Below are positions 1 through 13,060 of a DNA stretch of 13,060 bases, one piece after another. The stretch lies in contig JBHLRP010000070.1 in NCBI GenBank assembly GCA_048882485.1, positions 1-13,060 on the forward strand. Reading direction: 5' to 3'. The stretch's first letter is position 1. Every line of letters starts with the position of its first letter. Both the position numbers and the translations under genes were made by a program. This DNA is from Candidatus Thorarchaeota archaeon (GTDB lineage: Archaea > Asgardarchaeota > Thorarchaeia > Thorarchaeales > Thorarchaeaceae). Below the pieces are notes generated by a model that was not told where the DNA came from, made no database searches, and saw only the letters and a list, made by a program, of their open reading frames with translations.

Positions 1-486
1 ATCATAGCTTGTTGGAATACACTTCTCAAGACCAACAGGTGCAATCACTGTGATGTTTCTGGCCATTGCAGGCCCCATGAAAGTGCCTACTGTTCCACCG
101 GTTCTACTTGCCAGCAAGACAATCGGTATGTAGTCCGAACCAATTGCATTAGCACTCTTGATAATCACGTCGCCAGGACCCATTTGATCCAAGACATCAA
201 TCACTTTTTTCCCCTCAATCCGTTTCCCCTTGAGAAAGATAGCGTCAGGAAAACGTTTCTCACCTTCAGTGACCGCCAGACCTTTTGCAACAGTTAGTCC
301 TGCAATATGCCTGGTCTTGTCGTACTCTCCCAGTATCTCTTCAACGAGGTATGCTGAAGTGGTTCCCATTGTTATGCAGAGATATCCGTTCTTCCAAGCC
401 TGTTGGACAGATTCGGTCTTCAATAGTCCTTTAGCAATTAGTCTCTTGCTCTCTGCTACCGTGAGCGTGACAAGAAGCTTCTTCAT
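1..486 (-). CDS. Conserved hypothetical protein, 3'-truncated by the window edge; possibly NagB/RpiA/CoA-transferase-like (ISOCOT) fold
   Basis: Not in the ORF track. Hand translation from ATG at 486 is open for 162 codons to the edge: MKKLLVTLTVAESKRLIAKGLL...CITMGTTSAYLVEEILG...GPGDVIIKSANAIG...TGGTVG...IAPVGLEKCIPTSYD. The motifs LTVAESKRLIAK, GTT-AY, GDVxIKxANA, GGTxG and PVGLEK match an uncharacterised family I recall from anaerobic bacteria and archaea. The fold call is inference. Confidence 0.85.
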   Translation of the reverse strand, partial: MKKLLVTLTVAESKRLIAKGLLKTESVQQAWKNGYLCITMGTTSAYLVEEILGEYDKTRHIAGLTVAKGLAVTEGEKRFPDAIFLKGKRIEGKKVIDVLDQMGPGDVIIKSANAIGSDYIPIVLLASRTGGTVGTFMGPAMARNITVIAPVGLEKCIPTSYD

Positions 487-518
487 CTCAACTCATCTCT
501 TTCTGTCAATGCTCCCTG

Positions 519-524
519 ATTAAA
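519..524 (-). promoter_or_regulatory. Candidate archaeal TATA box for the 1-486 gene
   Basis: TTTAAT on the minus strand, 33-38 nt upstream of ATG 486, in the 58-bp gap after the dehydrogenase gene. Confidence 0.3.
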
Positions 525-544
525 CACTTTGGTTCGATTTGAAG

Positions 545-1846
545 CTAGATACTAAGACCAACATACTTCCTGACACGATTCTTGAATTCCTGTGCGACTC
601 CTGGAGGGTCAACAAACACTATCCCGCTCAAATCCTTCTCCTCGAGCTCCTTCAGAAGTAAATCGTGTGCTGCTCCCAGTACCACGATGTCACAGGACTG
701 CAGAACCTCCTCAATAGAATCGACCTTTCTATCACCGACCTTCTGCTCAACAAGTGGATCATAGACAACCACTTCGATTCCTGTTGACCAAAGGAGATTG
801 ATGAGTTCCAATGATGGACTGTTTCTCGTGTCTGACACATTTGGCTTGAAGCTCACTCCCAGAATTCCAACGGTAGATTTCAGCGAGAGGTCCAGAACCA
901 GTTCCCGAATTCTTTTTGACACATGAGCCGGCATTGAGTCATTGACTTGCCGAGCTGCAGGTATAAGGGCTCCCTCACCGTTGAGCGGACGCACAGACTC
1001 AACAAGAATCCATCCATCTTTCGGAAGACAGTAGCCTCCTACACCGAGTGATGGATTGAGGATGTCGACTCTTGGATGCAGATTTGCCAGTTCGATGACT
1101 TCCCTTACATCTATCGAAAGAGCCGTACAGAGCTTTGCCAGTTCATTAGCGTAGGCAATTCCGACGTCTCTGAATGCATTCTCAGCCAATTTCGCAGCCT
1201 CTGACACTCTTGCCTTCGTAGGATGAATTAATTCAGGATTGAAGACGGTCTTCAGAAATGCAACTGCAAGATCTGTCGATAGCTTTGATACTCCTCCTGC
1301 CAATCGATGATTGGTATCCATTTCCTTCACGACATGACCTGGAAGTACTCTTTCTGGACAATGGGCGAACCAAAAGTTCTCGTCCGGAGTTTTTCCACTT
1401 TTTTCATTGAATAGACTCGATAGACGTTCTGTCGTGCCAACAGGGACTGTACTCTCTACAATCACAAGGCAATCGCTTATGGCTTTGGATGCTAAATCTG
1501 CAACCGAATTTTCAAGGTACCTTGTGACAGGCTTGTTATTCTCATCTATAGGGCTGGGTAGACAGAGCACAAAGACATCGGTCTCTGCGATGTTATCGTA
1601 GGAAGTGTCTAAGGCAATGTCTGAAAGATGTTTTTCAGCAATCTGCTGTAGGCCATCTTCCTTCATCCGGATTTTTCCCATTCTAAGCTCGGCCACTAGT
1701 TCCTCATTCGTATCTATGCCAGTTATGGCCAGTCCGCTTCTCTTGTAGAAGAGTGCAGTAGGAAGTCCGATATAGCCGAGTCCTATTATCGAAACTTTCG
1801 CTTCCTTACTCTCAATTTTGCTTAGGAGCTTCTTGTGCCCGCTCAA
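545..1846 (-). CDS. wecC: UDP-N-acetylhexosamine 6-dehydrogenase (UDP-glucose/GDP-mannose dehydrogenase family, WecC/WbpA-like)
   Basis: Rossmann motif IIGLGYIGLP, then ESTVPVGTT, CPERVLPG, AKLAENAFRDVGIAYANE (catalytic Lys), GVGGYCLPKD (catalytic Cys) and GVSFKPNVSDTRNSP. TTG start with GGAGG upstream. The substrate (ManNAc, GlcNAc or GalNAc) cannot be resolved from sequence. Confidence 0.9.
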   Translation of the reverse strand: MSGHKKLLSKIESKEAKVSIIGLGYIGLPTALFYKRSGLAITGIDTNEELVAELRMGKIRMKEDGLQQIAEKHLSDIALDTSYDNIAETDVFVLCLPSPIDENNKPVTRYLENSVADLASKAISDCLVIVESTVPVGTTERLSSLFNEKSGKTPDENFWFAHCPERVLPGHVVKEMDTNHRLAGGVSKLSTDLAVAFLKTVFNPELIHPTKARVSEAAKLAENAFRDVGIAYANELAKLCTALSIDVREVIELANLHPRVDILNPSLGVGGYCLPKDGWILVESVRPLNGEGALIPAARQVNDSMPAHVSKRIRELVLDLSLKSTVGILGVSFKPNVSDTRNSPSLELINLLWSTGIEVVVYDPLVEQKVGDRKVDSIEEVLQSCDIVVLGAAHDLLLKELEEKDLSGIVFVDPPGVAQEFKNRVRKYVGLSI

Positions 1847-1855
1847 ATGGATTTG

Positions 1856-1860
1856 CCTCC
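1856..1860 (-). promoter_or_regulatory. Shine-Dalgarno-like GGAGG for the dehydrogenase TTG start
   Basis: cctcc at 1856-1860 reads GGAGG on the minus strand, with a 9-nt spacer to TTG at 1846. A TATA-like TTTTAA lies at 1891-1896 on the minus strand. Confidence 0.5.
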
Positions 1861-1903
1861 TCTATTCCTCCAAGGCACCTGTCCATGTCCTTAAAAGTTG
1901 CCT

Positions 1904-2920
1904 ATGGGAAAAGAACTGAGTTGGCAGTTTCATATTCCCAACGGGCGGCTAGAAAACATGTTGAATCTCACAGGAAATGAGATTGAAGATCTCATTCGGA
2001 GGGTGATTTCCTATGGTCCACCACAATGGGTGTCTCGGGACGATCCCACAAGACGCTTGGAAGTTCTTGGTTCTCTGTTTCAAAACGGTCCTTTGTTTGA
2101 AGCGAGAGCCATCCAAGTTGCAGCAGGACGCCTGGGATGCAGAACTGTGGATTTGGGCTGGAATCATGCTCAAAGAATGTCAACTGAATCACTTCAAACA
2201 GAGGTTAATATGTTCAATAAGGCGGTCGATGTGCTTCTGACTGCATTTGTCGACATGGATACGTTCGGTGCAGGCCGCCGTGTAGTAGAGCAGCTTGGCG
2301 CGTTTTCAAGAGTTCCACTTATCAGCCTATCAGATGACATCTATGCCTCTCAATCAGCTCTAGCTGTGACTTCTGCATTATGGGAACATCTAGGAGATCT
2401 AAAGGGGAAGAACATCGCGGTTTCCTGGGGATTTGGCTCAAATCACGTTTTGCCTTCTGCCGCTCACAGTCTGTGTCTATTGGGTGCATCTCTAGGAGCA
2501 AACATCAGAGTAGTTTCCCCGAGTGACTTTTCTCTATTGAATCGAGTCCTTCGAGACGCTCAAGACCGCGCCAAGACTGCTGGTGGAACCTTCGAAGAGT
2601 GTCATGATTTCGATTCCTTTCATGATGTCGATGCAGTATATGCGATGAATTGGTGTCGATTAGATGACTTCAATCGGCCACAGAGGAATTCTGAATACGC
2701 ATCTAAACACCGAGATTGGCATTTCACCAAGGATGTTTTGCCTCAGAGAGCCCTTTTTGTCACAAGACCGCCTATCCAGACAGAGCTCCTTGCAGGCCGC
2801 GCGTTGATAGATGGTGAGAATAACCTCACTAGCGATTTATTCGCCTGGACCGTGCAGGCGCTTCTGGCATCTATCTCATATGTAATCGATGAAGACGCAC
2901 AGCATTCTGTATTGCTCTAG
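1904..2920 (+). CDS. Aspartate/ornithine carbamoyltransferase-fold protein (YgeW/ArgF'-like), catalytic motifs apparently degenerate
   Basis: Scaffold motifs appear in the expected order: NLTGNEIEDLI, IQVAAGRLG, ESLQTEVNMFNKAVD, SRVPLISL, LKGKNIAVSW, LGANIRVVSPSDF, DVDAVYAMNW, KHRDW, LIDG. STRT, HPxQ, HCLP and AENR are absent. ATG 1904 is preferred over TTG 1898 or ATG 1958 because GRLENMLNLT resembles the usual GRDFLxLxD N-terminus. Confidence 0.8.
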   Translation: MGKELSWQFHIPNGRLENMLNLTGNEIEDLIRRVISYGPPQWVSRDDPTRRLEVLGSLFQNGPLFEARAIQVAAGRLGCRTVDLGWNHAQRMSTESLQTEVNMFNKAVDVLLTAFVDMDTFGAGRRVVEQLGAFSRVPLISLSDDIYASQSALAVTSALWEHLGDLKGKNIAVSWGFGSNHVLPSAAHSLCLLGASLGANIRVVSPSDFSLLNRVLRDAQDRAKTAGGTFEECHDFDSFHDVDAVYAMNWCRLDDFNRPQRNSEYASKHRDWHFTKDVLPQRALFVTRPPIQTELLAGRALIDGENNLTSDLFAWTVQALLASISYVIDEDAQHSVLL

Positions 2921-2947
2921 AATCCGCCATCATGGAATCAACAGACC

Positions 2948-2953
2948 TTTTAT
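2948..2953 (+). promoter_or_regulatory. Candidate TATA box upstream of the radical SAM gene
   Basis: TTTTAT 28-33 nt upstream of ATG 2981 with no obvious SD, consistent with a leaderless or short-leader archaeal transcript. Confidence 0.35.
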
Positions 2954-2980
2954 CATGAATCGCTATTGTGCTCCAAGACA

Positions 2981-4084
2981 ATGTGGAAGATTTATCGGCC
3001 CGACTCCATTCGGGTGTGGAAAGACGCAGAAGTAGTTCGTCGACTAAGAAGATACAGGCATATCATAGATCAAGAGCGATATGCCAAGTTCCTGCTTGCA
3101 AAAGATGTCATCACCAACCTACCTCTTGATTCTCCCCTAGGTGAGCTTTGGAAGGAGCACAAGGTGCTTTCAACCAAGCACTCTGAATATGTGAAACAGG
3201 TTGACTCTGGAGATCAGCGTAGTGTTGAAGTTCTGCCCAGTGAGCGGTCATTTCTTGATCTCAAAATTGAACTTGCAAACCGAATTCTTCAGGACTGCCA
3301 TTTCTGTGAACGGAAATGCGGAGCAGATCGCACTATGGATGACAAAGGTTGGTGCAAGCTAGGCAGCGAGTCTCGGGTTTCATCTGCTTTTCTCCATTCT
3401 GGCGAAGAAGCGCCTTTAGTTCCCAGCGGCACCATATTCTTCGCATCTTGCTGCTTTGGTTGTGTCTTTTGCCAGAACGAAGATATCTCCACGAATCCAA
3501 ACTCGGGTCAAGTCATAAGCACAAAAGAATTAGCAATCCTTGCTGATACATTGTTCAGAGATGGAGCTTTGAACATCAATTACGTTGGCGGAGACCCAAT
3601 ACCCAATACCCATACAATACTAGGTTCAATGGAGCATCAGACATCCAATGTGACTCAACTATGGAACTCCAACCTCTACTGTTCCGAGGAAACTATGAAA
3701 CTTCTTGCGGATGTATTTGATGTCTGGCTACCTGACTTCAAGTATGGCAATAATGAATGTGCAGAGAGACTATCCGGTGTCAAGAATTACTTCGATGTGG
3801 TTTCACGTAATCATTCAATGGCCTATCAGTATGGAGAGGTGATAGTCCGCCATCTCGTTATGCCTAATCACATTGAGTGCTGCACATTTCCCATTCTCGA
3901 ATGGATTTCTGAGAATTTGCCAGACTGTATGGTGAATATCATGGGTCAGTATCGACCTGAGCACAGAGTTCGAAGGGAGCGAGATAAATTTCCCGAGATA
4001 TCACGAAGAGTAAGTCGAGAGGAGATGCAGATTGCTCAGGCTAAAGCAGATGCCCTTGGTATCTGCTGGAGACCAGTGAGCTAG
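2981..4084 (+). CDS. pflX: Radical SAM protein, PflX-like (pyruvate-formate-lyase activating enzyme-related, COG1313)
   Basis: CX3CX2C motif CCFGCVFCQN, N-terminal CHFCERKCGADR...GWC, HSGEEAPLVPSGTIFF, NINYVGGDP, WNSN, WLPDFKYGN, VIVRHLVMPNH and NIMGQYRP. The extension MWKIYRPD...AKFLLAK is typical of archaeal members. ATG 2981 is preferred over TTG 2966. Confidence 0.88.
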   Translation: MWKIYRPDSIRVWKDAEVVRRLRRYRHIIDQERYAKFLLAKDVITNLPLDSPLGELWKEHKVLSTKHSEYVKQVDSGDQRSVEVLPSERSFLDLKIELANRILQDCHFCERKCGADRTMDDKGWCKLGSESRVSSAFLHSGEEAPLVPSGTIFFASCCFGCVFCQNEDISTNPNSGQVISTKELAILADTLFRDGALNINYVGGDPIPNTHTILGSMEHQTSNVTQLWNSNLYCSEETMKLLADVFDVWLPDFKYGNNECAERLSGVKNYFDVVSRNHSMAYQYGEVIVRHLVMPNHIECCTFPILEWISENLPDCMVNIMGQYRPEHRVRRERDKFPEISRRVSREEMQIAQAKADALGICWRPVS

Positions 4085-4140
4085 AACTCCATGCGTCATG
4101 TCACAAAATTCTAAAGAATGGCCTTTGTTCCCTCTCTAAC

Positions 4141-4371
4141 ATGTGTCTTGCAGTTCCTGGCCTAGTTGAGAGCATCGATGAGGACTATGCAGAAGTAGAC
4201 TTCGGAGGTGTTCGAAAGAGGGTATGCATTGCGCTACTTCCAGGACTGAAGACTGGCGAATATGTCATTGTCCATACTGGGTATGCCATTGAGCGATTGA
4301 AACCGGAAGAGGCCAAGAAGCGTCTTGAACTGTGGGAAGAGATGGCTCAGATGGCTGATGATACTGAATAG
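4141..4371 (+). CDS. hypC: [NiFe]-hydrogenase maturation chaperone HypC/HybG/HupF
   Basis: 76 aa with the diagnostic N-terminus MCLAVPG (Cys2), AEVDFGGV and GEYVIVHTGYAI (conserved His). Confidence 0.96.
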   Translation: MCLAVPGLVESIDEDYAEVDFGGVRKRVCIALLPGLKTGEYVIVHTGYAIERLKPEEAKKRLELWEEMAQMADDTE

Positions 4372-4434
4372 GGCGCGTAGCCAGACCTTCAGAAAATGCT
4401 ATCAAGTCATTCACTGATGGCTCGTTCGAGCACA

Positions 4435-5292
4435 ATGACAGACACACTTGAATCAATTATGGCTGAGCTAAAGTTTCGTATCAACACTGAGGACACAGTC
4501 ACAAAGATATCTCAGGACGAGATTGAGTCTCTAATTCCCAATACCGTTGTTGTCATGCCTGCCGGAGGGAAGGGCACCAGAATACGTGCGGAGACTCAGA
4601 GCGAGGGCATAAACAAGGTGATGATCAGCATTGATGGAACGGAGAGCATGATAGAGAAGGCAATCAGTGATTATGCCTCCATTGGGATTTCCAAGTTTGT
4701 TGTGCTTACGGGGTTTCTCGCTGAAGAGGTTGAAGAGCATCTTGGAGATGGTGCTAGATGGGATGTTGAGATTCTCTACTCTCAGGATCCTGAAGGAAGA
4801 AAGGTCGGAAATGCAGGAGCCATTCTAAATGCTCTCAATAACGGCACAATCGATGATTCGTTGACTGCAATTGTACACAATCCTGATGACATGATTGTCG
4901 GCCTCAGTCGTCCATACGGAAGGATTTTCCTAGAGGGTCACTTGAAGGGCAGAAAGAATGGATGCATTAGCACTTTTGTGGTTGTACCTGAAACGCCATT
5001 CCAGTATTCAGGCATGATAATAAGCAAGGGTAGAGTATCAGATATCGCAAAATATCCACCAATTGCTATTCCAGCACACACTGGTATAACACTCTTTGAC
5101 CCGGAAGTTTATGACTACTTTAGACGATTTGTTTCACTTGAGAAGGAAACCTCTTTCGAGAACGTTATCAGTCCCGTATTGGCAAAAGAGGGGAAACTCT
5201 ACGCCGTCAACGTTCCATCTGAATGCTGGATTCCCGTAAATGATTTGAAGGGTATCGAAAGAGCAAAGATGGCTCTGTGCAATTCCAATTGA
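4435..5292 (+). CDS. Sugar-phosphate nucleotidyltransferase (NTP_transferase family), divergent, without a hexapeptide C-terminal domain
   Basis: VVMPAGGKGTRIR...NKVM (GGxGTR...K motif), VVLTGFLAEEVEEHLGDGARWDVEILYSQD, GNAGAI, HTGITLFDP, SFENVISPVLA and WIPVND. The start is uncertain: in-frame ATGs at 4396, 4417, 4435 and 4459. Confidence 0.85.
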   Translation: MTDTLESIMAELKFRINTEDTVTKISQDEIESLIPNTVVVMPAGGKGTRIRAETQSEGINKVMISIDGTESMIEKAISDYASIGISKFVVLTGFLAEEVEEHLGDGARWDVEILYSQDPEGRKVGNAGAILNALNNGTIDDSLTAIVHNPDDMIVGLSRPYGRIFLEGHLKGRKNGCISTFVVVPETPFQYSGMIISKGRVSDIAKYPPIAIPAHTGITLFDPEVYDYFRRFVSLEKETSFENVISPVLAKEGKLYAVNVPSECWIPVNDLKGIERAKMALCNSN

Positions 5293-5400
5293 TTTATCAG
5301 CATCAGTTCTCTCCAACATCATTCCAGAACCTTCTAATACTCGACACACTCAGAGAATCCATCTGGTGCGGACCGTTTCTCTTGAGGGGCGCTTTCATCC

Positions 5401-6177
5401 ATGAAGACGGTGATTATACCTACGCTCAATGAAGAGGAAAACATTGGGCGTCTTATACCTGCCATCTACGATTACTTGGGTGAAAAAGGTGTTACAGTGG
5501 TCGTCGTTGATGATGCGAGTGAAGACCGTACCTGCGAAGTCGCCGAGAAGCTAGGCGAAGAATACAGTATCAAGCTCCTTGAACGCAGAGGTCAGCGTGG
5601 AATATCTAGTGCCGTCCGATGGGCTTCGGAAAAGGCTGGAAATGGACATGTTGCTGTGATGGATGCAGACTGGTCACACCATCCGATGTATCTCCCTATG
5701 CTGTTCAAGAAGATTGAACTAGGCTACGATATCGTTGTAGGCTCAAGATACGTGTCTGGAGGAGGTGTCGATGGTTGGCCGAGTTACAGGCATTTTCTCA
5801 GTCTAGGTGCCACTGTGCTTGCCAAAGCGCTATTCCGGTTTCCAATACGAGATCCTATGAGCGGCTACGCCGCGTTCAAATCAAGTCAGCTATTAATTGA
5901 TGGTATTGCAGATTCAGAATCCAAATTTCTGATTGATGTTCTAGCATCGAACAATCATCTTCGAATTGTTGAGATTCCAATAGTATTCCGAAATCGCAAA
6001 CTGGGATCTAGTAAATTAACAGGCGTCACACTCATAGGATACCTCAATCAGATTCTGTCCCAATATCTTCAACGCAAAAAAAGGAGGGCGTGGATGAATA
6101 GACCATCTTCGTTGGCTATTCCAGTTGAGCCGGTACATTTTGCATCCCTTCACCAAACTGATATAACAAATCAATGA
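5401..6177 (+). CDS. GT2 polyprenol/dolichol-phosphate mannose synthase-like glycosyltransferase (Dpm1/Ppm1-like)
   Basis: IIPTLNEEENI, VVVDDASEDRT, VMDADWSHHP (DxD), VVGSRYVSGG, RDPMSGY and EIPIVFRNRKLGSSKL. No C-terminal transmembrane segment. Confidence 0.9.
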   Translation: MKTVIIPTLNEEENIGRLIPAIYDYLGEKGVTVVVVDDASEDRTCEVAEKLGEEYSIKLLERRGQRGISSAVRWASEKAGNGHVAVMDADWSHHPMYLPMLFKKIELGYDIVVGSRYVSGGGVDGWPSYRHFLSLGATVLAKALFRFPIRDPMSGYAAFKSSQLLIDGIADSESKFLIDVLASNNHLRIVEIPIVFRNRKLGSSKLTGVTLIGYLNQILSQYLQRKKRRAWMNRPSSLAIPVEPVHFASLHQTDITNQ

Positions 6178-6186
6178 TGCTACGCA

Positions 6187-8325
6187 ATGCAATTCAGCAA
6201 GGTGTCTGTATTGGAGTCTAGTAGATTAAGACGTGAAGATGGACTTCCAGACACTACTAACCAAAGGCAAGCACTTCTTATCATTGCGGTTCTCCTCAAT
6301 CTTGTTCCAGCATTTATCCTCCGATTCGTTGGGGGCATAATGTATCCCTTTTTCATCGTGGTGTTCCTTTGGACCGCGCTCTACATCATCACGCTAGCAA
6401 TAGCCGTACGAATTGTCAGAAGTGGGGAGTCTCTTTCTCTCTTCAGTGTATCATCAAAATTCTCTCTGCCAATGTTACTACTGGTTTCGGTGGTTCCGCG
6501 TTTAGCATGGATTGGTTCTGAGTTTCTCGTTTCACTCGATGCTGTATGGTACATTGATTACGGGAAATTCATGGCACAGGGAAGCTTGCCTTACGCTGAT
6601 TTCTATTTTCCATATCCTCCCATTTTCGGCTACTTCGTCTATGCCATCTTGCTCATTGCACCCTCAGTGGACAGCTACAGAATCCTTGCTGTCATTTTTG
6701 ACATGGCGATTGTTGTGGCTCTATGGCAGATGGTTCGGTCCAAGGTGATCAAGGATGAATTTCGTCTTGCTCCATTGGTATATGCGCTTCTCCCTTTTGC
6801 TGTCATTGAGTCTGGCTTCAATGGACACTTCGAGCCAATAGCGAATATCTTTCTCATTCTCTCACTCTGGTGTATCCTGAGCGGTCGTCCCAGGTTGAGC
6901 GGAGTATTCCTTGGGCTCAGTGCAGCAACCAAGGTATATGCGGCCTTTATGCTTCCGGTGTACTTGCTCATCATCCGGGAGAACCGAAAGAGGATTGAGC
7001 TCATAGTGCTTGCACTTATTTCTGGCTATCTCACATTTATCCCGTTCTCAATCCCAGTATGGCTCAGAGGCGATTTGCTATTCCCGGGCACGGCTATGCC
7101 AGGGCTCTCAACCGGGTTCTTTGATGCATTGTTTGGCTTCATCTTTGACCTTGCTCCTCTGCATCTTCTTACTATTGCACTGATTGGCTTTGGCGCATTG
7201 GTTATGGTCATTTTCATTCTACTCAAGTCCCTTGGAGATCGCCCAGACCAGCTTGGGTCCACAGCAACCCTCTATGATATTCTATCCCTTTGCCTTGGAA
7301 TCGTGTTTGGTGTCATGACCGTTCTTGTGTGGGTATATCCTCTCCTTCCGCCTGGCCCTGGTGTATTTTGGCGGTACCCGTTCGATGTCGCTCTCGCTCG
7401 GGGTGTTTCTACGGCAGCTGGGACCCTGCTCATCATACGGATGGGTTGGCGAAGATGGAGGAATGCGACAAGTAGGAATATTACCAATAGACAACTAGCG
7501 CTGATTGCATCCGTGCTATTGATGCTGCTTGTTTCCATGTCGAAACAGGTGTTTTACGGATGGTATCTTCTGTGGGTCCTCCCGCCTGTCTTCCTGATCC
7601 GCGACCGCAGACTGGTGTACCTTGCAATAGCATGTATGCTATTCCTCTATCCTAGCTATACCCATGACAATTTCCTCAATCTTGGCTATGATGATGTCAA
7701 GACCTGGAGTGATCAGTTCTCAGAAGTGGATGACTGGGTATTGACTGTTGACCTGTCTAATACTACTCTGTCATTAGATGACGTTGGAGTCCATTCTCAG
7801 AGCACAAACGGGATAGGACGATTCTCTGTCGACACTAGCTCGGTCACTAATGAATCGGAACGTAGCATGATATCCGTCACATGGACCAAGAACGTGAATA
7901 TCCCGGTAACACCTCACACCGAATTTGTGATAAGAGAGTCCGCAGACTGGGATCCAGTCTTCGGAAGGTATTGCGATGTGGAGCTGCATTTTGAGGGTCT
8001 CAATTCCACAGGACATTCAGTCAGCTGGCCGATAATTGCAGAATGGCAACATGCTCCATCAAACATCACGTTTTGGCTGTGGCGATTCGCATTCTCCGGA
8101 CAAGGCATACATGTGCATCCGATCGAGCTGACACAGCTTCGCATTTTGATCGATAACATTCGTGAGCCTCGATTAGCATTTCTAGTGGACTTCATGTATA
8201 CAACCGAGGTCAATCTATTCTCCCTTGGGTCCGTCCCGCTCGTTTCTCTACTGACTATTCCCAACCTCTTGGCTGTTCTTGTTTTGGAGAGGACACTGCC
8301 AAGAGAGAATGAATGGTATTTGTAA
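6187..8325 (+). CDS. Polytopic GT-C glycosyltransferase (GT87/DUF2029/PIG-M-like) with a C-terminal exported domain and terminal membrane anchor
   Basis: Many hydrophobic helices. The loop SLDAVWYIDYG...GSLPYADFYFPYPP and the segments YALLPFAVIESGFNGHFEP, GVFLGLSAATKVYAAF and YGWYLLWVLP are typical of GT87/PIG-M-like enzymes. Begins 9 nt after the Dpm1-like stop codon. Confidence 0.8.
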   Translation: MQFSKVSVLESSRLRREDGLPDTTNQRQALLIIAVLLNLVPAFILRFVGGIMYPFFIVVFLWTALYIITLAIAVRIVRSGESLSLFSVSSKFSLPMLLLVSVVPRLAWIGSEFLVSLDAVWYIDYGKFMAQGSLPYADFYFPYPPIFGYFVYAILLIAPSVDSYRILAVIFDMAIVVALWQMVRSKVIKDEFRLAPLVYALLPFAVIESGFNGHFEPIANIFLILSLWCILSGRPRLSGVFLGLSAATKVYAAFMLPVYLLIIRENRKRIELIVLALISGYLTFIPFSIPVWLRGDLLFPGTAMPGLSTGFFDALFGFIFDLAPLHLLTIALIGFGALVMVIFILLKSLGDRPDQLGSTATLYDILSLCLGIVFGVMTVLVWVYPLLPPGPGVFWRYPFDVALARGVSTAAGTLLIIRMGWRRWRNATSRNITNRQLALIASVLLMLLVSMSKQVFYGWYLLWVLPPVFLIRDRRLVYLAIACMLFLYPSYTHDNFLNLGYDDVKTWSDQFSEVDDWVLTVDLSNTTLSLDDVGVHSQSTNGIGRFSVDTSSVTNESERSMISVTWTKNVNIPVTPHTEFVIRESADWDPVFGRYCDVELHFEGLNSTGHSVSWPIIAEWQHAPSNITFWLWRFAFSGQGIHVHPIELTQLRILIDNIREPRLAFLVDFMYTTEVNLFSLGSVPLVSLLTIPNLLAVLVLERTLPRENEWYL

Positions 8326-8342
8326 GGTGTGACTGTGTGGGC

Positions 8343-9563
8343 TTACCTTGTCATTTTGAATGTCTTCTGATAGTTGAGGAGGGTTCTCTTGGCTGCAAGT
8401 GTCCAATTCTCACTCTTCGCATATTCAATCTGCATTCGGCTTCTCTCCTCCAACTTGCTTGGTTGGCTCAGGATGCCCATTAGTTTCTCTGCCAGGGCTC
8501 TCGGATCTCCAGAACTGAAAAGGAATAGGTTGCCCCCTATTGATTCTCTGTTGTGGAAACCCACATCAGAAGCCAATATAGGGATACCATATCCAGCATA
8601 GTTGTGAATTGGGCCACTGGCACCTACGCTTTCAGTATATGGAATGAGCAAGAGTGTACTCGCCGAGAAGTATACAGGCACCTCATCGTCCGGAATGAAC
8701 CTTGTGTCGAATCGTATGTTCTCTTCAATAGCAAGCTCACCCACCAAATCGTGCAAATGTTCCAAGTGTCTATCACCCTCGCGACCCTGTGGTCTGCCTG
8801 CCACAAGCAAAAAAGCGTCTGGATGTTTTTCCCTCACTGCACTTATCGCGCGTAGGGCCGTATCAAAGCCCTTCCCCGGGCGTATGAATCCAAACATCAA
8901 GATGACCTTCTTGTCTGCTAGTCCGAGCAATCTTGCAGCATGTTGTTGGTCTGGTTTCCCCCCAGGAGGTACACAAGGATGAGGTATCTCTAGAACCTTC
9001 TTTGGATTGAATCCATATTCCCTAAGGAAGACTCTCCTCAGCGTCGAGTTCTCTCTCACGGTGCTTAGTTGTACAGTATCGGTGCTCCAATTCAAGACCT
9101 TCATGAAGAAACGGAAGATAGGCCCTGCCAGGATGGAGAACCGCCCAACTATTCTGTATTTCTTCACTCTCTCAACTACCTGCCATGGCATCCATGTGCT
9201 ATGCAATGTCATGGTAGTCTTCACTCCAGTCAAGCGCAAGAGAATCAGGAGAAACAGCATGATTTCACCGAAGAACCCTCCATAGACTCTCCCGTAAGGT
9301 CCAAACTGTACATGAGCGAGACTGCACTGCTTTTCAGCTATTTTTCCAAGCAACTGGAAAGGGTACATGATTGAGCGACCATCCCAGATTGATAATGTTT
9401 CAATCATGGAATTAGGAGGACTTACAGGATTGGCTTCTTTACCTCCAATTGCGATCACTCTGACCTTTCCAGTACTCACTAGGTTCTTGATCAATCTGGC
9501 AGCATAAGGAGCCTCTCCTGACTTCTCTGGAGGTAACGGGGAGATCATTGCCACCCTAAACAT
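8343..9563 (-). CDS. GT4 (GT-B fold) glycosyltransferase
   Basis: MFRVAMISPLPPEKSGEAPY, AHVQF, TMTLHS, EIPHP, FGFIRPGKGFD, LLVAG, FIPDDEVPVYFSAS and PYTESVGASG...GIPILASD. ATG 9563 is preferred because the ORF-track start at 9662 adds 33 non-homologous residues. Confidence 0.88.
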   Translation of the reverse strand: MFRVAMISPLPPEKSGEAPYAARLIKNLVSTGKVRVIAIGGKEANPVSPPNSMIETLSIWDGRSIMYPFQLLGKIAEKQCSLAHVQFGPYGRVYGGFFGEIMLFLLILLRLTGVKTTMTLHSTWMPWQVVERVKKYRIVGRFSILAGPIFRFFMKVLNWSTDTVQLSTVRENSTLRRVFLREYGFNPKKVLEIPHPCVPPGGKPDQQHAARLLGLADKKVILMFGFIRPGKGFDTALRAISAVREKHPDAFLLVAGRPQGREGDRHLEHLHDLVGELAIEENIRFDTRFIPDDEVPVYFSASTLLLIPYTESVGASGPIHNYAGYGIPILASDVGFHNRESIGGNLFLFSSGDPRALAEKLMGILSQPSKLEERSRMQIEYAKSENWTLAAKRTLLNYQKTFKMTR

Positions 9564-9664
9564 AGGAACCACTTCTGTCTGGAAACTAACAGGTGAAAAG
9601 GGTTTCCGGCACCTGAGGCCGACAACTTGATTTGCAGGGATTGGTCGTTTCGTGAGGAGCACTT

Positions 9665-9670
9665 AGGAGA
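9665..9670 (+). promoter_or_regulatory. Shine-Dalgarno-like AGGAGA for the flippase
   Basis: AGGAGA with a 7-nt spacer to ATG 9678. Confidence 0.45.
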
Positions 9671-9677
9671 CAGAGAT

Positions 9678-11207
9678 ATGTCAGACCCTGCATCAGCAGC
9701 CGCAAGAGGCACGTCTGCATTCATTGGCCAAGCCGCAGTCACTGGCATGCTGAGAGTGTTGAACCTCGCAATTCTGACACGACTGTTGATACAGGAAGAG
9801 ATGGGACAGATTGCTTTCCTGGGAATAATCTACGGCTTTATGCAGTTTCTTGGAGCACTCGGACTTAACCATGCTTCTCCACTGGTAATTCCAGAGGAGG
9901 AGGCGAAGGGGAACATAGGTCGAGTCAAGGGTTTTCTGACGAGGGCAACGGCAATCATCCTCGTTTCCTCGTCGGTAATGGCTATGCTGGTGCTTCTACT
10001 GACTCCTTTTCTATTTGCTTCGAGCGTGGTGTCTTTCGGCCTGCTCAGACTAGCCGTTATCATCGCTCCCTTTTCTGCCCTGGAAACATTCCTTGACTCA
10101 TTTCTTTTGGCAAGATACTCTGTGAAGAACCTAGCAACTGGCCGAATTGTTTTCGACATCTCTCGAATTATCGGAACGGTTGGGCTAGTTCTAATTGGCA
10201 TGGGAGTAGAAGGCGTGATGATTGGATGGCTCATGGGAGAAATAGTGGCTGTGGTTGTCTTTGGCTCAGCTGCCATCCGAGGTCTGAATGTAGAATCTAT
10301 AGCCATCAAGATGACCCCTATTCTAGCGTTTGCCGTACCGAATCTAGCATTCCAGGCTATTGATGTGACCATTCAGAATACAGATCGGCTTATCCTGCTC
10401 TACCTTACAGACCTCAGGGCCTTGGGAGTATTCGATGTGATTCTGAGAATCCTATATATGTTGAGCCTGTTGTCCCTTACAATTGCATCTTCAATATATC
10501 CTATACTGACCCGTATCAGGATCCGCCTTGACAGTGATGATGAGGCCTGGGGACAGGAGATGGGCAATGTCATCTCGAATCTTGTCCGTTACATTCTGAT
10601 TCTCGTCCTTCCTTTGGCTGTCATCGCAGCTCTCAATTCTCATATTATACTGGAGGTCCTATTTGGGACTCCATATGCCGTGTATCCAAGCGCAAGCCTC
10701 TCCTTCGCAATCCTTGTGCTCTCATACGCACTATGGGGGGTCATTCATGCAATTCATACATCGCTGCGGTCGATGGGTGAAGCCAAGTTCTTCATCTTCA
10801 CTGGACTAGGAATCATCGTTTTCGAGATCATTGGAGCTTGGTATCTTATTGGGTGGCTAGGCCTGCTAGGATCTGCAGTCATTCGCGCTCTATATGTGAC
10901 CATACTGTTCATTAGCTCTTGGGCACGATTGTACCAAAGAGGAGTGATTGGGCTCGGCTCTGTTAGCATCTCAGTCATCAGGATTGGCCTCGCGTCTGTT
11001 ATGGCGGGATGCATTGTCTTCTTGGTTCACCCCGTTGGGATCATAGATCTGGCATTCTGGGTCTTGTCTGGAGCATTGGCATACATCTGTCTTCTCTTTG
11101 GTTTCCGAGAGGTAAGAGGCCTAGATTTCCAGATTGCCAGGGCAGTTTTGCCTACCAGACTTCATGGAGTGGTAAAGAGGCTAGAGCACATCTACACAAG
11201 GGCATAG
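9678..11207 (+). CDS. Wzx/RfbX-type (MOP superfamily) oligosaccharide flippase
   Basis: 509 aa with roughly 12-14 hydrophobic segments. AARGTSAF...ILTRLLIQEEMGQ, LGLNHA, ILAFAVP...TDRLIL...ALGVF, SIYPILTR, ILEVLFGTPY, LRSMGE and LIGWLGLLGSA follow the flippase pattern. Confidence 0.88.
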   Translation: MSDPASAAARGTSAFIGQAAVTGMLRVLNLAILTRLLIQEEMGQIAFLGIIYGFMQFLGALGLNHASPLVIPEEEAKGNIGRVKGFLTRATAIILVSSSVMAMLVLLLTPFLFASSVVSFGLLRLAVIIAPFSALETFLDSFLLARYSVKNLATGRIVFDISRIIGTVGLVLIGMGVEGVMIGWLMGEIVAVVVFGSAAIRGLNVESIAIKMTPILAFAVPNLAFQAIDVTIQNTDRLILLYLTDLRALGVFDVILRILYMLSLLSLTIASSIYPILTRIRIRLDSDDEAWGQEMGNVISNLVRYILILVLPLAVIAALNSHIILEVLFGTPYAVYPSASLSFAILVLSYALWGVIHAIHTSLRSMGEAKFFIFTGLGIIVFEIIGAWYLIGWLGLLGSAVIRALYVTILFISSWARLYQRGVIGLGSVSISVIRIGLASVMAGCIVFLVHPVGIIDLAFWVLSGALAYICLLFGFREVRGLDFQIARAVLPTRLHGVVKRLEHIYTRA

Positions 11208-11307
11208 CAGGCACCACAGGTACAGGTGAAGCACCTTGGAAATGCTCATAAGCCCGCAGAATCGGATGAGCTAGACACGCAGTTCTACATGTTTCTCCCA
11301 TGGTGGA

Positions 11308-12483
11308 ATGATGAAGTTGAGTGAGTCGGGCCTCAAGCTATTGATGTACAGTCCCCTAAGCCTAAGAATGGGCGCAGGTGGAGACCGATGGCTTGTGGAG
11401 ATGGCACCTCGATTGATGAAGAGAGGCATTCAACCTACCGTGTTTGCTACCGATTTCATGGTAAAGAACTATCGCAGAAATCCTACAGATTGGTTTGTAG
11501 ATCAACTGGTTGATTCTGGAATCCGATACGAGGAAGCCGCATCCAGTTCAATCTCAAGTACTGTCAACACTCCACTAATGGGGAGAGGGGCGTTTACTCA
11601 ACTCTCCAGAGAGATGAAGAATCATGATATAACCTACTTCATGAATGCCTATTTCTTTCAGGATGTGTCAACTTGGATGGCCAAGCGGCTGGCCCATCCA
11701 GCGCCTGTGATAAGTGCTCAACATGCGACTCTATTTCAGGACAACCCATTTCACAATGCCTACATCCACCTAGTAAGTCGGAGCCTGCTCAGGGTATTCG
11801 ATGCGTTTCACGTACTGAACAAAGAAGACTACTTGACCTATGGGAGATGGGGGTTAAGCCCAGCATTTCTTATTCCCAACGGTGTGGATACCACGACGTT
11901 CTTTCCTGCTCGTTCGAAAGATGACGAACAGTTCAATGTGCTCTATCTAGGAAGACTAGACCACCAGAAGGGTATAGATACACTTCTTGAGGCAATTCAA
12001 TTCATCGAGAACAAGGTGGGCGACGGAATCGTCTTCAAGATTGGTGGGACCGGTCCATTCAGGGAGCATGTGCAGAGATTTGTCCGGAATCGTCCAAATG
12101 TTCAATACCTCGGCCGTGTGCCTGAAGAAGATCTCGTGCAGGTTTACAATTCAGCCAGCGTTTTCGCAATGCCGTCTCGTCGAGAGACCTTTGGTCTGGT
12201 AGCATTGGAGGCCATGGCTTGTGGTACTCCAGTTGTGGTGAGTGATATTCCGGGCCCAAGGAGTTTCATTGAGGAATCTTTTGCACGCAAGATGCCACCA
12301 ACGAATCCGAAGCTATTGGCAGATGCAATTGAATGGTTCTATCATCTTTCGCTGGAACATCCAGAAGAGTTCAAATCCATGGCGAAGAACGCCAGAGCCG
12401 TCTGCGTCGAAAAGTTCGACTGGGAGCAGATATCTGACAGGCTTTCAGCCGTGATAAAGTGGGTAGTAGCGGGAAAGGAATAG
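11308..12483 (+). CDS. GT4 (GT-B fold) glycosyltransferase, PimA/PIG-A/RfaB-like
   Basis: GAGGDRW, ISAQHA, IPNGVD, YLGRLDHQKGID, IGGTGP, LGRVPEED and an intact EX7E motif in PSRRETFGLVALEAMACGTPVV. Confidence 0.92.
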   Translation: MMKLSESGLKLLMYSPLSLRMGAGGDRWLVEMAPRLMKRGIQPTVFATDFMVKNYRRNPTDWFVDQLVDSGIRYEEAASSSISSTVNTPLMGRGAFTQLSREMKNHDITYFMNAYFFQDVSTWMAKRLAHPAPVISAQHATLFQDNPFHNAYIHLVSRSLLRVFDAFHVLNKEDYLTYGRWGLSPAFLIPNGVDTTTFFPARSKDDEQFNVLYLGRLDHQKGIDTLLEAIQFIENKVGDGIVFKIGGTGPFREHVQRFVRNRPNVQYLGRVPEEDLVQVYNSASVFAMPSRRETFGLVALEAMACGTPVVVSDIPGPRSFIEESFARKMPPTNPKLLADAIEWFYHLSLEHPEEFKSMAKNARAVCVEKFDWEQISDRLSAVIKWVVAGKE

Positions 12484-12552
12484 GGAAGTATTGCAGATGA
12501 AACAGGTTTGAAATTGAGGGAACACCCCGAGGCGGTGCTATTCGGCCCCAAC

Positions 12553-12564
12553 TATATCATATAA
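12553..12564 (+). promoter_or_regulatory. AT-rich TATA-like element upstream of the last GT2
   Basis: TATATCATATAA in the longest intergenic gap, followed by AGGAGA (12585-12590) 6 nt before an in-frame GTG at 12597. Confidence 0.3.
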
Positions 12565-12638
12565 CACAAGATGATTGATAAAACAGGAGATTTCCAGTGC
12601 AAATAGGAAACCAAAATAATAGAGCTGAGGACTCAAGA

Positions 12639-13060
12639 TTGACCTTTGTCTACTTTCTATTGCCTGCCTACAACGAAGAGGCGAACTTGCCTGACCTTCT
12701 CACGGCAATAGATGAAGCGATGACTGACTATCATGTCGTTCTTGTGAACGATGGCTCGCAAGATCATACTGGAGAGATAGCCCGTGAGTATGCACAAAAG
12801 ATGCCCATGACAGTCATTGATCATGAAGAGAACAAAGGTCTTGGCGGCGCTCTGAAGACGGGGATATTTTACATTATTGAGAAAGGGCAAAACGGTGCAG
12901 CCGTGGTCACTATGGACTCTGACCTCACCCACGATCCAAAGATGGTTCCATTGATGGTCCGTGAACTAGAAAAGGGATTTGATGTTATTGTTGCTTCTCG
13001 TTACGCACCCGGAGGAGAACAACGCAATCTTCCTCTTTCTAGGAGGATTCTGAGTTGGGG
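12639..13060 (+). CDS. Second GT2 Dpm1-like glycosyltransferase, 3'-truncated by the window edge
   Basis: Not in the ORF track. Hand translation: (M)TFVYFLLPAYNEEANL...VLVNDGSQDHT...HEENKGLGGALKTG...VVTMDSDLTHDP...DVIVASRYAPGG...RRILSW. The start is TTG 12639 or GTG 12597; an in-frame TAA at 12579-12581 bounds the ORF. Confidence 0.9.
   Translation, partial: MTFVYFLLPAYNEEANLPDLLTAIDEAMTDYHVVLVNDGSQDHTGEIAREYAQKMPMTVIDHEENKGLGGALKTGIFYIIEKGQNGAAVVTMDSDLTHDPKMVPLMVRELEKGFDVIVASRYAPGGEQRNLPLSRRILSW

Follow-up and report, generated by a model that had tools for sequence, protein, structure and literature searches.

A transcarbamylase-fold protein family of Thorarchaeaceae that lacks the carbamoyl-phosphate site and is maintained by purifying selection

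Every characterised transcarbamylase works with carbamoyl phosphate (CP) by means of three motifs, SxRT, HPxQ, and HxLP, which bind CP and mark all known members of the group (PMC4581275). Here we describe a gene for a transcarbamylase-fold protein in which all three motifs are replaced. The gene lies on the forward strand, in an open frame at positions 1904-2920, of a 13,060-nucleotide stretch of DNA from a Candidatus Thorarchaeota archaeon (assembly GCA_048882485.1, contig JBHLRP010000070.1, positions 1 to 13,060), which was analysed as a whole and is called the window below.

In the knotted transcarbamylases (AOTCase, SOTCase, and YgeW), the chain forms a trefoil knot. Two loops serve to recognise this group, one rich in proline and the other an extended 120's loop (PMC4581275). 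One knotted-branch protein, YgeW, retains the CP site and possesses additional N- and C-terminal helices as well as a longer 240's loop (PMC4581275). The same review from 2015 noted some transcarbamylase-like sequences without the essential motifs and mentioned an inactive dihydroorotase (DHOase) partner of aspartate carbamoyltransferase (ATCase) (PMC4581275). The literature that we searched for a dead transcarbamylase family, or for a link of such a family to Thorarchaeota, contained nothing relevant. This agrees with an initial annotation of the window, made from the sequence alone, whose author knew of no described family of this kind.

Fold and former carbamoyl-phosphate site

In sequence comparisons, the protein was recognised as a transcarbamylase relative with low scores. 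The Pfam OTCace model for the Asp/Orn-binding domain matched with an E-value of 1.6e-7, barely above its cut-off, and the Pfam model for the CP-binding domain gave 0.0086, which is under its cut-off. The top NCBIfam model was that of N-acetylornithine carbamoyltransferase (AOTCase, NF003384), with 1.7e-20 and 73.4 bits against a cut-off of 288. A phmmer search of the PDB sequences returned ornithine carbamoyltransferase (OTCase) from P. furiosus (1a1s) with 6.5e-15, followed by AOTCase from X. campestris. An AlphaFold2 (AF2) model, computed with an alignment of 25 homologues as input, had a mean predicted local distance difference test (pLDDT) score of 86.6 and a predicted template modelling (TM) score of 0.88. 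The top Foldseek matches of this model were the AOTCase structures 3l02 and 3kzk (E ~1e-19 to 1e-20, TM 0.79-0.81); OTCases, YgeW, and PTCase came next, with TM scores of 0.71-0.81 across the set. Two Rossmann-like domains and a C-terminal helix that crosses back, as required for the ATCase/OTCase superfamily, are both evident from the fold comparison. The model, with its TM score of 0.80 to AOTCase, bears out the full transcarbamylase scaffold that had been proposed by eye. A search of the ESM Atlas with the protein returned only ordinary transcarbamylase clusters. We conclude that the relationship to transcarbamylases is weak in sequence yet clear, and far beyond chance.

The gene and the segments discussed in the following are:

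1889-1900, plus strand: TATA-like box CCTTAAAAGTTG, including TTAAAA at 1891-1896; candidate archaeal promoter
1904-1957, plus strand: in-frame 5' extension, probably an untranslated leader (residues 1-17 with pLDDT <50; frame unconserved in close relatives)
1958-2920, plus strand: transcarbamylase-fold gene without CP site; likely true coding sequence, 320 aa, stop codon TAG at 2918-2920
2078-2101, plus strand: former FxxxSxRT CP loop, now FQNGPLFE (F59-E66), with Glu in place of the motif Thr
2228-2245, plus strand: DVLLTA (D109-A114), with Ala in place of the Arg at the end of beta3 (R106 equivalent); Ala, Ser, or Gly family-wide
2252-2278, plus strand: extended 120's loop DxxTFGAGR, with 7 residues inserted compared with unknotted OTCase; near-invariant residues F121, G122, and G124
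2342-2356, plus strand: former HPxQ, now YASQS (Y147-S151), according to the alignments
2423-2470, plus strand: proline-rich loop region SWGFGSNHVLPSAAHS, with 5 residues inserted compared with OTCase; conserved residues W175, F177, G178, P184, and H188
2639-2671, plus strand: end of beta8 and 240's loop, YAMNWCRLDDF (YAMNW = Y246-W250), with the Lys of KSW replaced
2762-2773, plus strand: former HxLP, now TRPP (T287-P290), according to the alignments
2840-2851, plus strand: former (A)ENR segment, now FAWT (F313-T316), according to the alignment

When aligned by HMMER with OTCase of P. furiosus (1a1s) and AOTCase of X. campestris, the replaced strings exactly faced STRT, R106, HPCQ, DVW/KSW, and HCLP. 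An identical motif register was obtained by MAFFT alignment with 24 active knotted relatives. All motif coordinates of the initial annotation agree with the translation and with both alignments. A proper alignment might have relocated intact motifs elsewhere in the protein; no alternative register brought back any CP motif. The targeted loss that had been read from this one sequence is shared family-wide, as none of 58 full-length family members carries SxRT, HPxQ, or HxLP.

Position by position, the replacements differ in character. At SxRT, the active relatives have Ser, Arg, and Thr in 100% of the sequences each, whereas the window protein reads PLFE. In the family, the first position is mainly Pro (39%) or Ser (25%), and the Arg position is variable (L/W/R/S). 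Thr occurs at the third position in no member; Glu (55%) and Asp (34%) together account for 89%. The HPxQ motif reads ASQS in the window protein. Its His, present in 100% of the active relatives, is Ala (75%) or Ser (15%) in the family, and its Gln (95% in the active relatives) is replaced by Ser, Pro, Ala, or Gly. The beta3 Arg and the His and Gln of HPxQ have thus given way to small residues (A/S/G) across the family. Of HxLP, which reads TRPP in the window protein, the family keeps the final Pro alone (91%), and the Cys position of HCLP is occupied by Glu or Asp in 65% of the members. The Lys of KSW is Leu or Met in the family, and the Arg of (A)ENR is present in 62% of the family and absent from the clade of the window protein. 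For the 12 CP-contact positions, the mean frequency of the top residue was 0.93 in the 24 active relatives and 0.50 in the 58 family members, compared with 0.50 and 0.52, respectively, over all positions. The special constraint on the CP site is gone, and the CP positions evolve like average sites of the family. Residues essential for the reaction are absent from this enzyme homologue, which is how a pseudoenzyme is operationally recognised.

Both signatures of the knotted group are present. The proline-rich loop follows beta5 as SWGFGSxxxxP, with P184 invariant, and the extended 120's loop DxxTFGAGR aligns with YGxG of the active knotted relatives. Because both insertions are shared and AOTCase ranks first among the profile and fold matches, a derivation of the family from the knotted AOTCase/YgeW branch is supported by these comparisons, as the initial annotation had suggested.

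The window protein and AOTCase (ArgF'; X. campestris 3kzc/3kzk/3l02) have in common the two-domain fold (TM 0.79-0.81), the proline-rich loop and extended 120's loop, the Trp of (K/N)SW, a DW motif, and the Pro of HxLP. AOTCase is characterised by the specificity residues Glu92, Asn185, and Lys302 in addition to the CP site. The two proteins are, however, only ~20% identical, and the window protein falls outside NF003384, with its score below the cut-off and its CP site absent. It lacks SxRT, the R106 equivalent, HPxQ, the Lys of KSW, the His-Cys-Leu of HCLP, and the Arg that follows; furthermore, its gene is located outside any arginine gene cluster. YgeW (3q98, 2yfk; TIGR03316) likewise shares the loop signatures of the knotted branch and matches the fold with a TM score of ~0.75, but the window protein reaches only 38-42 bits against cut-offs of 453-500.

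While the CP site has lost its constraint, other segments are conserved in a manner specific to the family. Near-invariant family-specific residues are R76, F121/G122/G124, D144, F177/G178/P184/H188, F209/L212/R214, N249 together with the 240's loop, R261, and A266. With the exception of R76, they are located at or just past the C-terminal ends of strands, that is, on the cleft side, as judged from the secondary structure of the model. Constraint in the family is greatest on the 240's loop and also affects the 120's and proline-rich loops, the beginning of helix 6, and the LLxR stretch that follows beta6. The 240's loop (NWCRLDDF...PERN) is the strongest family-specific conserved segment and is conserved in this form only within the family. 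Specificity for the second substrate is determined in transcarbamylases by four loops, the 120's, proline-rich, and 240's loops among them, and the 240's loop closes over the substrates.

The frame at 1904-2920 is uninterrupted and comprises 338 codons plus a stop codon; the opposite strand holds no competing open reading frame (ORF) of at least 80 aa in this interval. Translation probably starts further downstream, at ATG 1958, because many orthologues initiate at a Met matching M19 of the 338-aa frame, residues 1-17 are disordered in the AF2 model, and close relatives carry frame-breaking 1-nt indels within 1904-1957 (the predicted N-terminus of one of them stems from another frame), while ATG 1958 is invariant in an alignment of the upstream regions of six close relatives. 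The first 18 codons are then probably untranslated, and the protein would consist of 320 aa. The open frame of the initial annotation therefore stands, but its length of 338 aa probably does not. The CCTTAAAAGTTG box is identical in six of six aligned relatives, though its flank varies, and is a candidate archaeal TATA element.

Family, selection, and distribution

A word-indexed search yielded 35 clusters, of which the named ones originate from metagenome-assembled genomes (MAGs) labelled Thor-, Hermod-, or Promethearchaeota. A HMMER scan of 1.84 billion cluster representatives revealed ~35 full-length family representatives with E-values <1e-59, then a gap, and below it ordinary knotted transcarbamylases from ~1e-31 onwards. 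Identity within the family goes down to ~30%, with the fold and 20-odd family-specific near-invariant residues kept.

A sample of 301 Asgard genomes was searched, in which true members were those scoring >216 bits. The gene occurred as a single copy in 59 of the 76 other genomes of the GTDB family to which the window belongs (Thorarchaeaceae-type MAGs), and no true members were found in the other Asgard families of the sample. Eight matches of ~128 bits outside the GTDB family are likely canonical enzymes; the two that were examined, from genomes G240 and G210, are canonical. Many genomes without a member are missing its neighbours as well, so that the entire region has probably not been assembled in these. 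One family member carries the NCBI label Lokiarchaeota, and the range of the family may therefore be slightly wider than the sample.

In a midpoint-rooted maximum-likelihood tree, the family was monophyletic (100/100) on a stem of ~2 substitutions per site. With the long stem and the midpoint rooting, the tree did not resolve its sister group or its position among the transcarbamylases. The nearest relatives outside the family are Asgard AOTCase-like proteins, with E-values of 1e-31 to 1e-37 against the family profile. They include P0079 (labelled Heimdallarchaeota/Kariarchaeaceae), the proteins of G240 and G210, and two paralogues encoded on contig C27 of the window's own genome. Their loop architecture is as in the family, from which they are separated by the long stem, but they keep STRTR, HPxQ, and mostly an HxLP-type motif. 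The AOTCase-like gene of G240 adjoins an M20/ArgE-like gene, identified from reading its sequence. A metagenome protein, P0094, is a knotted-type homologue outside the family in which NPILQAM, YDPIQ, and LYPLP replace SxRT, HPxQ, and HxLP. Its branch emerges close to the base of the clade of active proteins, and it may represent an independent loss of the CP site.

Ratios of nonsynonymous to synonymous substitution rates (dN/dS) were determined by the Nei-Gojobori method for the window gene and five close orthologues. The transcarbamylase-fold gene showed values of 0.13-0.32, with ~0.2 in unsaturated pairs, compared with 0.04-0.12 for the adjacent radical S-adenosylmethionine (SAM) gene and 0.07-0.10 for a GT2 gene. 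The NTP-transferase pairs with L003 and L005 were excluded because the coordinates of the high-scoring segment pairs were out of register. The gene is under purifying selection, which is 2-3 times more relaxed than in its neighbours, and not near the value of 1 by which a decaying gene would have been recognised. Cross-species purifying selection, the second mark of a retained pseudoenzyme, is apparent from dN/dS, the distribution, and the identities down to ~30%.

Possible roles of the retained fold

Judged by its residues, the protein firmly appears unable to use CP as known transcarbamylases do, and yet it is maintained. We consider it probable that the protein is a pseudoenzyme as far as carbamoyl transfer is concerned, and that it has been kept to bind a ligand or partner, without catalysis, at the old acceptor-side cleft. 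According to this proposal, a lineage-specific offshoot of the knotted transcarbamylases would have kept the two-domain fold while no longer binding CP and, therefore, would not catalyse carbamoyl transfer. The pocket that once bound CP has small residues where the beta3 Arg and the His and Gln of HPxQ used to be, next to a variable SxRT Arg position. Its SxRT Thr has given way to an acidic side chain, as has the HxLP Cys in most members. Constraint has shifted from the CP subsite to the 120's, proline-rich, and 240's loops and nearby stretches, and a small ligand or a protein partner would be recognised at the old acceptor-side cleft. The protein is probably still trimeric. A binding role seems likeliest because the constraint now resides at the acceptor-side cleft and the evolutionary rate is moderately relaxed.

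Several points weigh against this proposal. The absence of activity is deduced from replaced residues. The conserved loops would also form the knot and the domain core, and their conservation may be partly structural. Near the old pocket, D144, D145, E/D66, H188, and N249 are conserved and acidic or polar; they could equally form a new catalytic or metal site, their grouping in three dimensions being judged from secondary-structure positions only. Furthermore, genomes G063 (91% complete) and G069 (97%) have the block of genes around the radical SAM gene; since both are fairly complete and no copy of the transcarbamylase-fold gene was found in them, the gene is dispensable in some lineages.

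The strongest alternative, though in our view an unlikely one, is a neofunctionalised enzyme with an amino-acid-like or phosphorylated substrate, whose reaction would differ from carbamoyl transfer and would not depend on CP. D144, D145, E/D66, H188, N249, R214, R261, and the Gly-rich 120's loop would supply its active site. Invariant polar residues at strand ends that point towards the cleft, and are specific to the family, would suit such an enzyme. The same applies to the exceptional conservation of the 240's loop, the substrate-closing element of transcarbamylases, and to the purifying selection on the gene. However, the literature searched, including PMC4581275, yielded no transcarbamylase-fold protein with CP-independent chemistry, and the positions of the old pocket differ between family members. 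The dN/dS values, 2-3 times those of the neighbouring enzymes, and the long branches within the family are more in keeping with a binding protein than with a catalyst under tight constraint.

By analogy with PyrC' of Pseudomonas ATCase, the protein might instead be a non-catalytic subunit that forms mixed trimers with an active knotted paralogue or regulates it. PyrC', the inactive dihydroorotase of dodecameric ATCases, likewise has a full enzyme fold without catalytic residues and is kept by selection, but its dead fold is that of a DHOase and not of a transcarbamylase. Candidate active partners of the kind envisaged in the initial annotation do exist. The window's genome (3.96 Mb, 90.5% complete) contains five other transcarbamylase-fold genes with largely or fully intact CP motifs. 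These encode PyrB, an ArgF split across two contig ends, a second OTCase-like protein, and two knotted AOTCase-like proteins, whose genes lie 13 kb apart on contig C27. Moreover, the nearest active relatives of the family are Asgard AOTCase-like proteins. On the other hand, a shared trimer interface is doubtful, given an identity of only 21-24% between the window protein and the paralogues and the very long stem of its family. Moreover, its gene shows no chromosomal linkage to paralogues or arginine genes. We regard mixed trimers as improbable.

In the genome (G000), the other transcarbamylase-fold genes are distributed over contigs C27 (L024, L026), C67 (L025), C14 (L027), and C40/C20 (L029, L028). 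The total of six equals the highest count per genome mentioned in the 2015 review (PMC4581275). The knotted paralogue L026 has SVRTR and HPCQ, and a regular-expression search found no HxLP match in it.

Gene neighbourhood and significance

The neighbouring features on the side of the transcarbamylase-fold gene and directly downstream are:

1-486, minus strand: N-terminal part of a conserved 255-aa protein without family match; located upstream in divergent orientation in almost every locus
545-1846, minus strand: UDP-ManNAc-dehydrogenase-like gene in a variable slot, which holds PurB or nothing in other genomes
2948-2955, plus strand: invariant TTTTATCA box, with its centre ~30 nt upstream of the radical SAM start codon (ATG 2981)
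2966-4084, plus strand: PflX-like radical SAM gene, with CxxxCxxC and an N-terminal Cys-rich extension (CHFCERKC...GWC)
4141-4371, plus strand: HypC/HupF gene, 76 aa (MCLAVPG...), Pfam PF01455 with 1.2e-25

Across 23 MAG loci, the gene order is the divergent gene for the 255-aa protein, the variable slot, the transcarbamylase-fold gene, the radical SAM gene, and hypC, continued by genes for an NTP-transferase, a Dpm1-like GT2, and a GT87-like GT-C. The radical SAM gene is directly downstream in 20 of the 23 loci (19 on the same strand), and in a 21st the contig end is reached first. In 18 loci of the taxonomic order, hypC comes after the radical SAM gene; the two are directly adjacent in most Thorarchaeal loci, and a few loci have extra sequence between them. 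The hypC gene of the window is the sole copy in its genome, with hypD, hypE, and hypF on other contigs. It occupies an apparent 310-nt gap between the radical SAM and NTP-transferase genes and was not in the initial annotation, which thus missed the radical SAM/hypC context of the transcarbamylase-fold gene.

This arrangement invites the idea that the protein is an accessory of the PflX-like radical SAM enzyme and HypC, acting in metallocentre or hydrogenase maturation, or of the downstream nucleotide-sugar and glycan genes. We consider this as doubtful as the mixed trimers. The frequent adjacency and the single hypC speak for it, but the radical SAM gene occurs in 253 of the 301 Asgard genomes, with ~50% identity across families, and nearly all of these genomes lack the transcarbamylase-fold gene. 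It looks like a conserved housekeeping enzyme. The block of radical SAM, hypC, and NTP-transferase genes also exists without the transcarbamylase-fold gene, namely in G063, G069, and G112, a genome of a sister family. In several genomes that have both genes, insertions of 1-12 kb or separate contigs part the transcarbamylase-fold gene from the radical SAM gene. Of the Asgard genomes that are not Thorarchaeal, 19 were examined, and none had hypC or the NTP-transferase gene within 4 kb of the radical SAM gene (0/19), which rules out a phylum-wide radical SAM-HypC unit. The invariant TTTTATCA box ~30 nt before ATG 2981 suggests a separate promoter for the radical SAM gene, so that each of the two genes would have its own conserved TATA-like box. 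Finally, the slot upstream is filled by unrelated housekeeping genes, for example those for PurB or a UDP-sugar dehydrogenase.

Functional coupling to the radical SAM enzyme is unproven, given that the enzyme is near-universal without the partner, the adjacency is broken, and the boxes are separate. Membership in a glycan pathway (NTP-transferase, GT2, GT87-like GT-C, GT4s, flippase) is a matter of synteny, and the block exists without the gene. The 255-aa neighbour gives no functional clue either, as it has no family match and is also present in G069, which lacks the transcarbamylase-fold gene. The block looks like an order-specific conserved gene order among unrelated housekeeping genes, and the neighbourhood assigns no function to the transcarbamylase-fold gene.

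Other features of the region were observed in passing. The 255-aa protein, complete at L002:5767-6534 on the minus strand, is soluble and shows 59-100% identity across the full-length matches in the GTDB family. It had no Pfam or NCBIfam match, and the Atlas returned only widespread look-alike hypothetical clusters from Archaea and Bacteria. Several genomes encode a paralogue of it at ~35% identity. Some genomes (L037:3900-11400, G103; L036, G027) carry an opposite-strand cassette of 8-10 kb between the transcarbamylase-fold and radical SAM genes, with an ORF of 1319 aa and three or more ORFs that lack a family match. Positions 5401-13060 of the window hold a glycosylation module with a Dpm1-like GT2, a 712-aa GT87/PIG-U-like GT-C, two GT4s, a MOP-type flippase, and a second GT2. 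In most Thorarchaeal loci, the NTP-transferase gene is followed by those for the GT2 and the GT-C.

That the gene is a decaying copy, a functionless pseudogene in the making, can hardly be upheld: all catalytic motifs are gone, the gene evolves faster than its neighbours, and some genomes of the GTDB family yielded no copy, but almost every genome with the gene has an intact frame (a stop occurs inside a few matches, where it may or may not fall within the coding part), fold and near-invariant residues persist at identities down to ~30%, dN/dS is ~0.2, the promoter-like box is conserved, and the AF2 model is confident. A bolder and tentative suggestion is that the family is not inert at all. 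It might represent the first transcarbamylase fold to reuse the acceptor cleft, formed by the 240's, proline-rich, and 120's loops, either for CP-independent catalysis or for metabolite sensing or partner binding specific to Thorarchaeaceae, possibly tied to the radical SAM-HypC unit. A metabolite sensor had also been suggested in the initial annotation.

A knotted fold kept under selection, with a decayed CP site and new fixed residues in its specificity loops, would be a clear case of a pseudoenzyme or of repurposing. The finding also bears on annotation. Some JGI/IMG source annotations label genes of the family "ornithine carbamoyltransferase", a name that overstates the arginine and CP metabolism inferred for Thorarchaeota MAGs. 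Such genes can be flagged by an acidic residue at the position of the SxRT Thr, the lack of HPxQ, and an NWCRLDDF loop.

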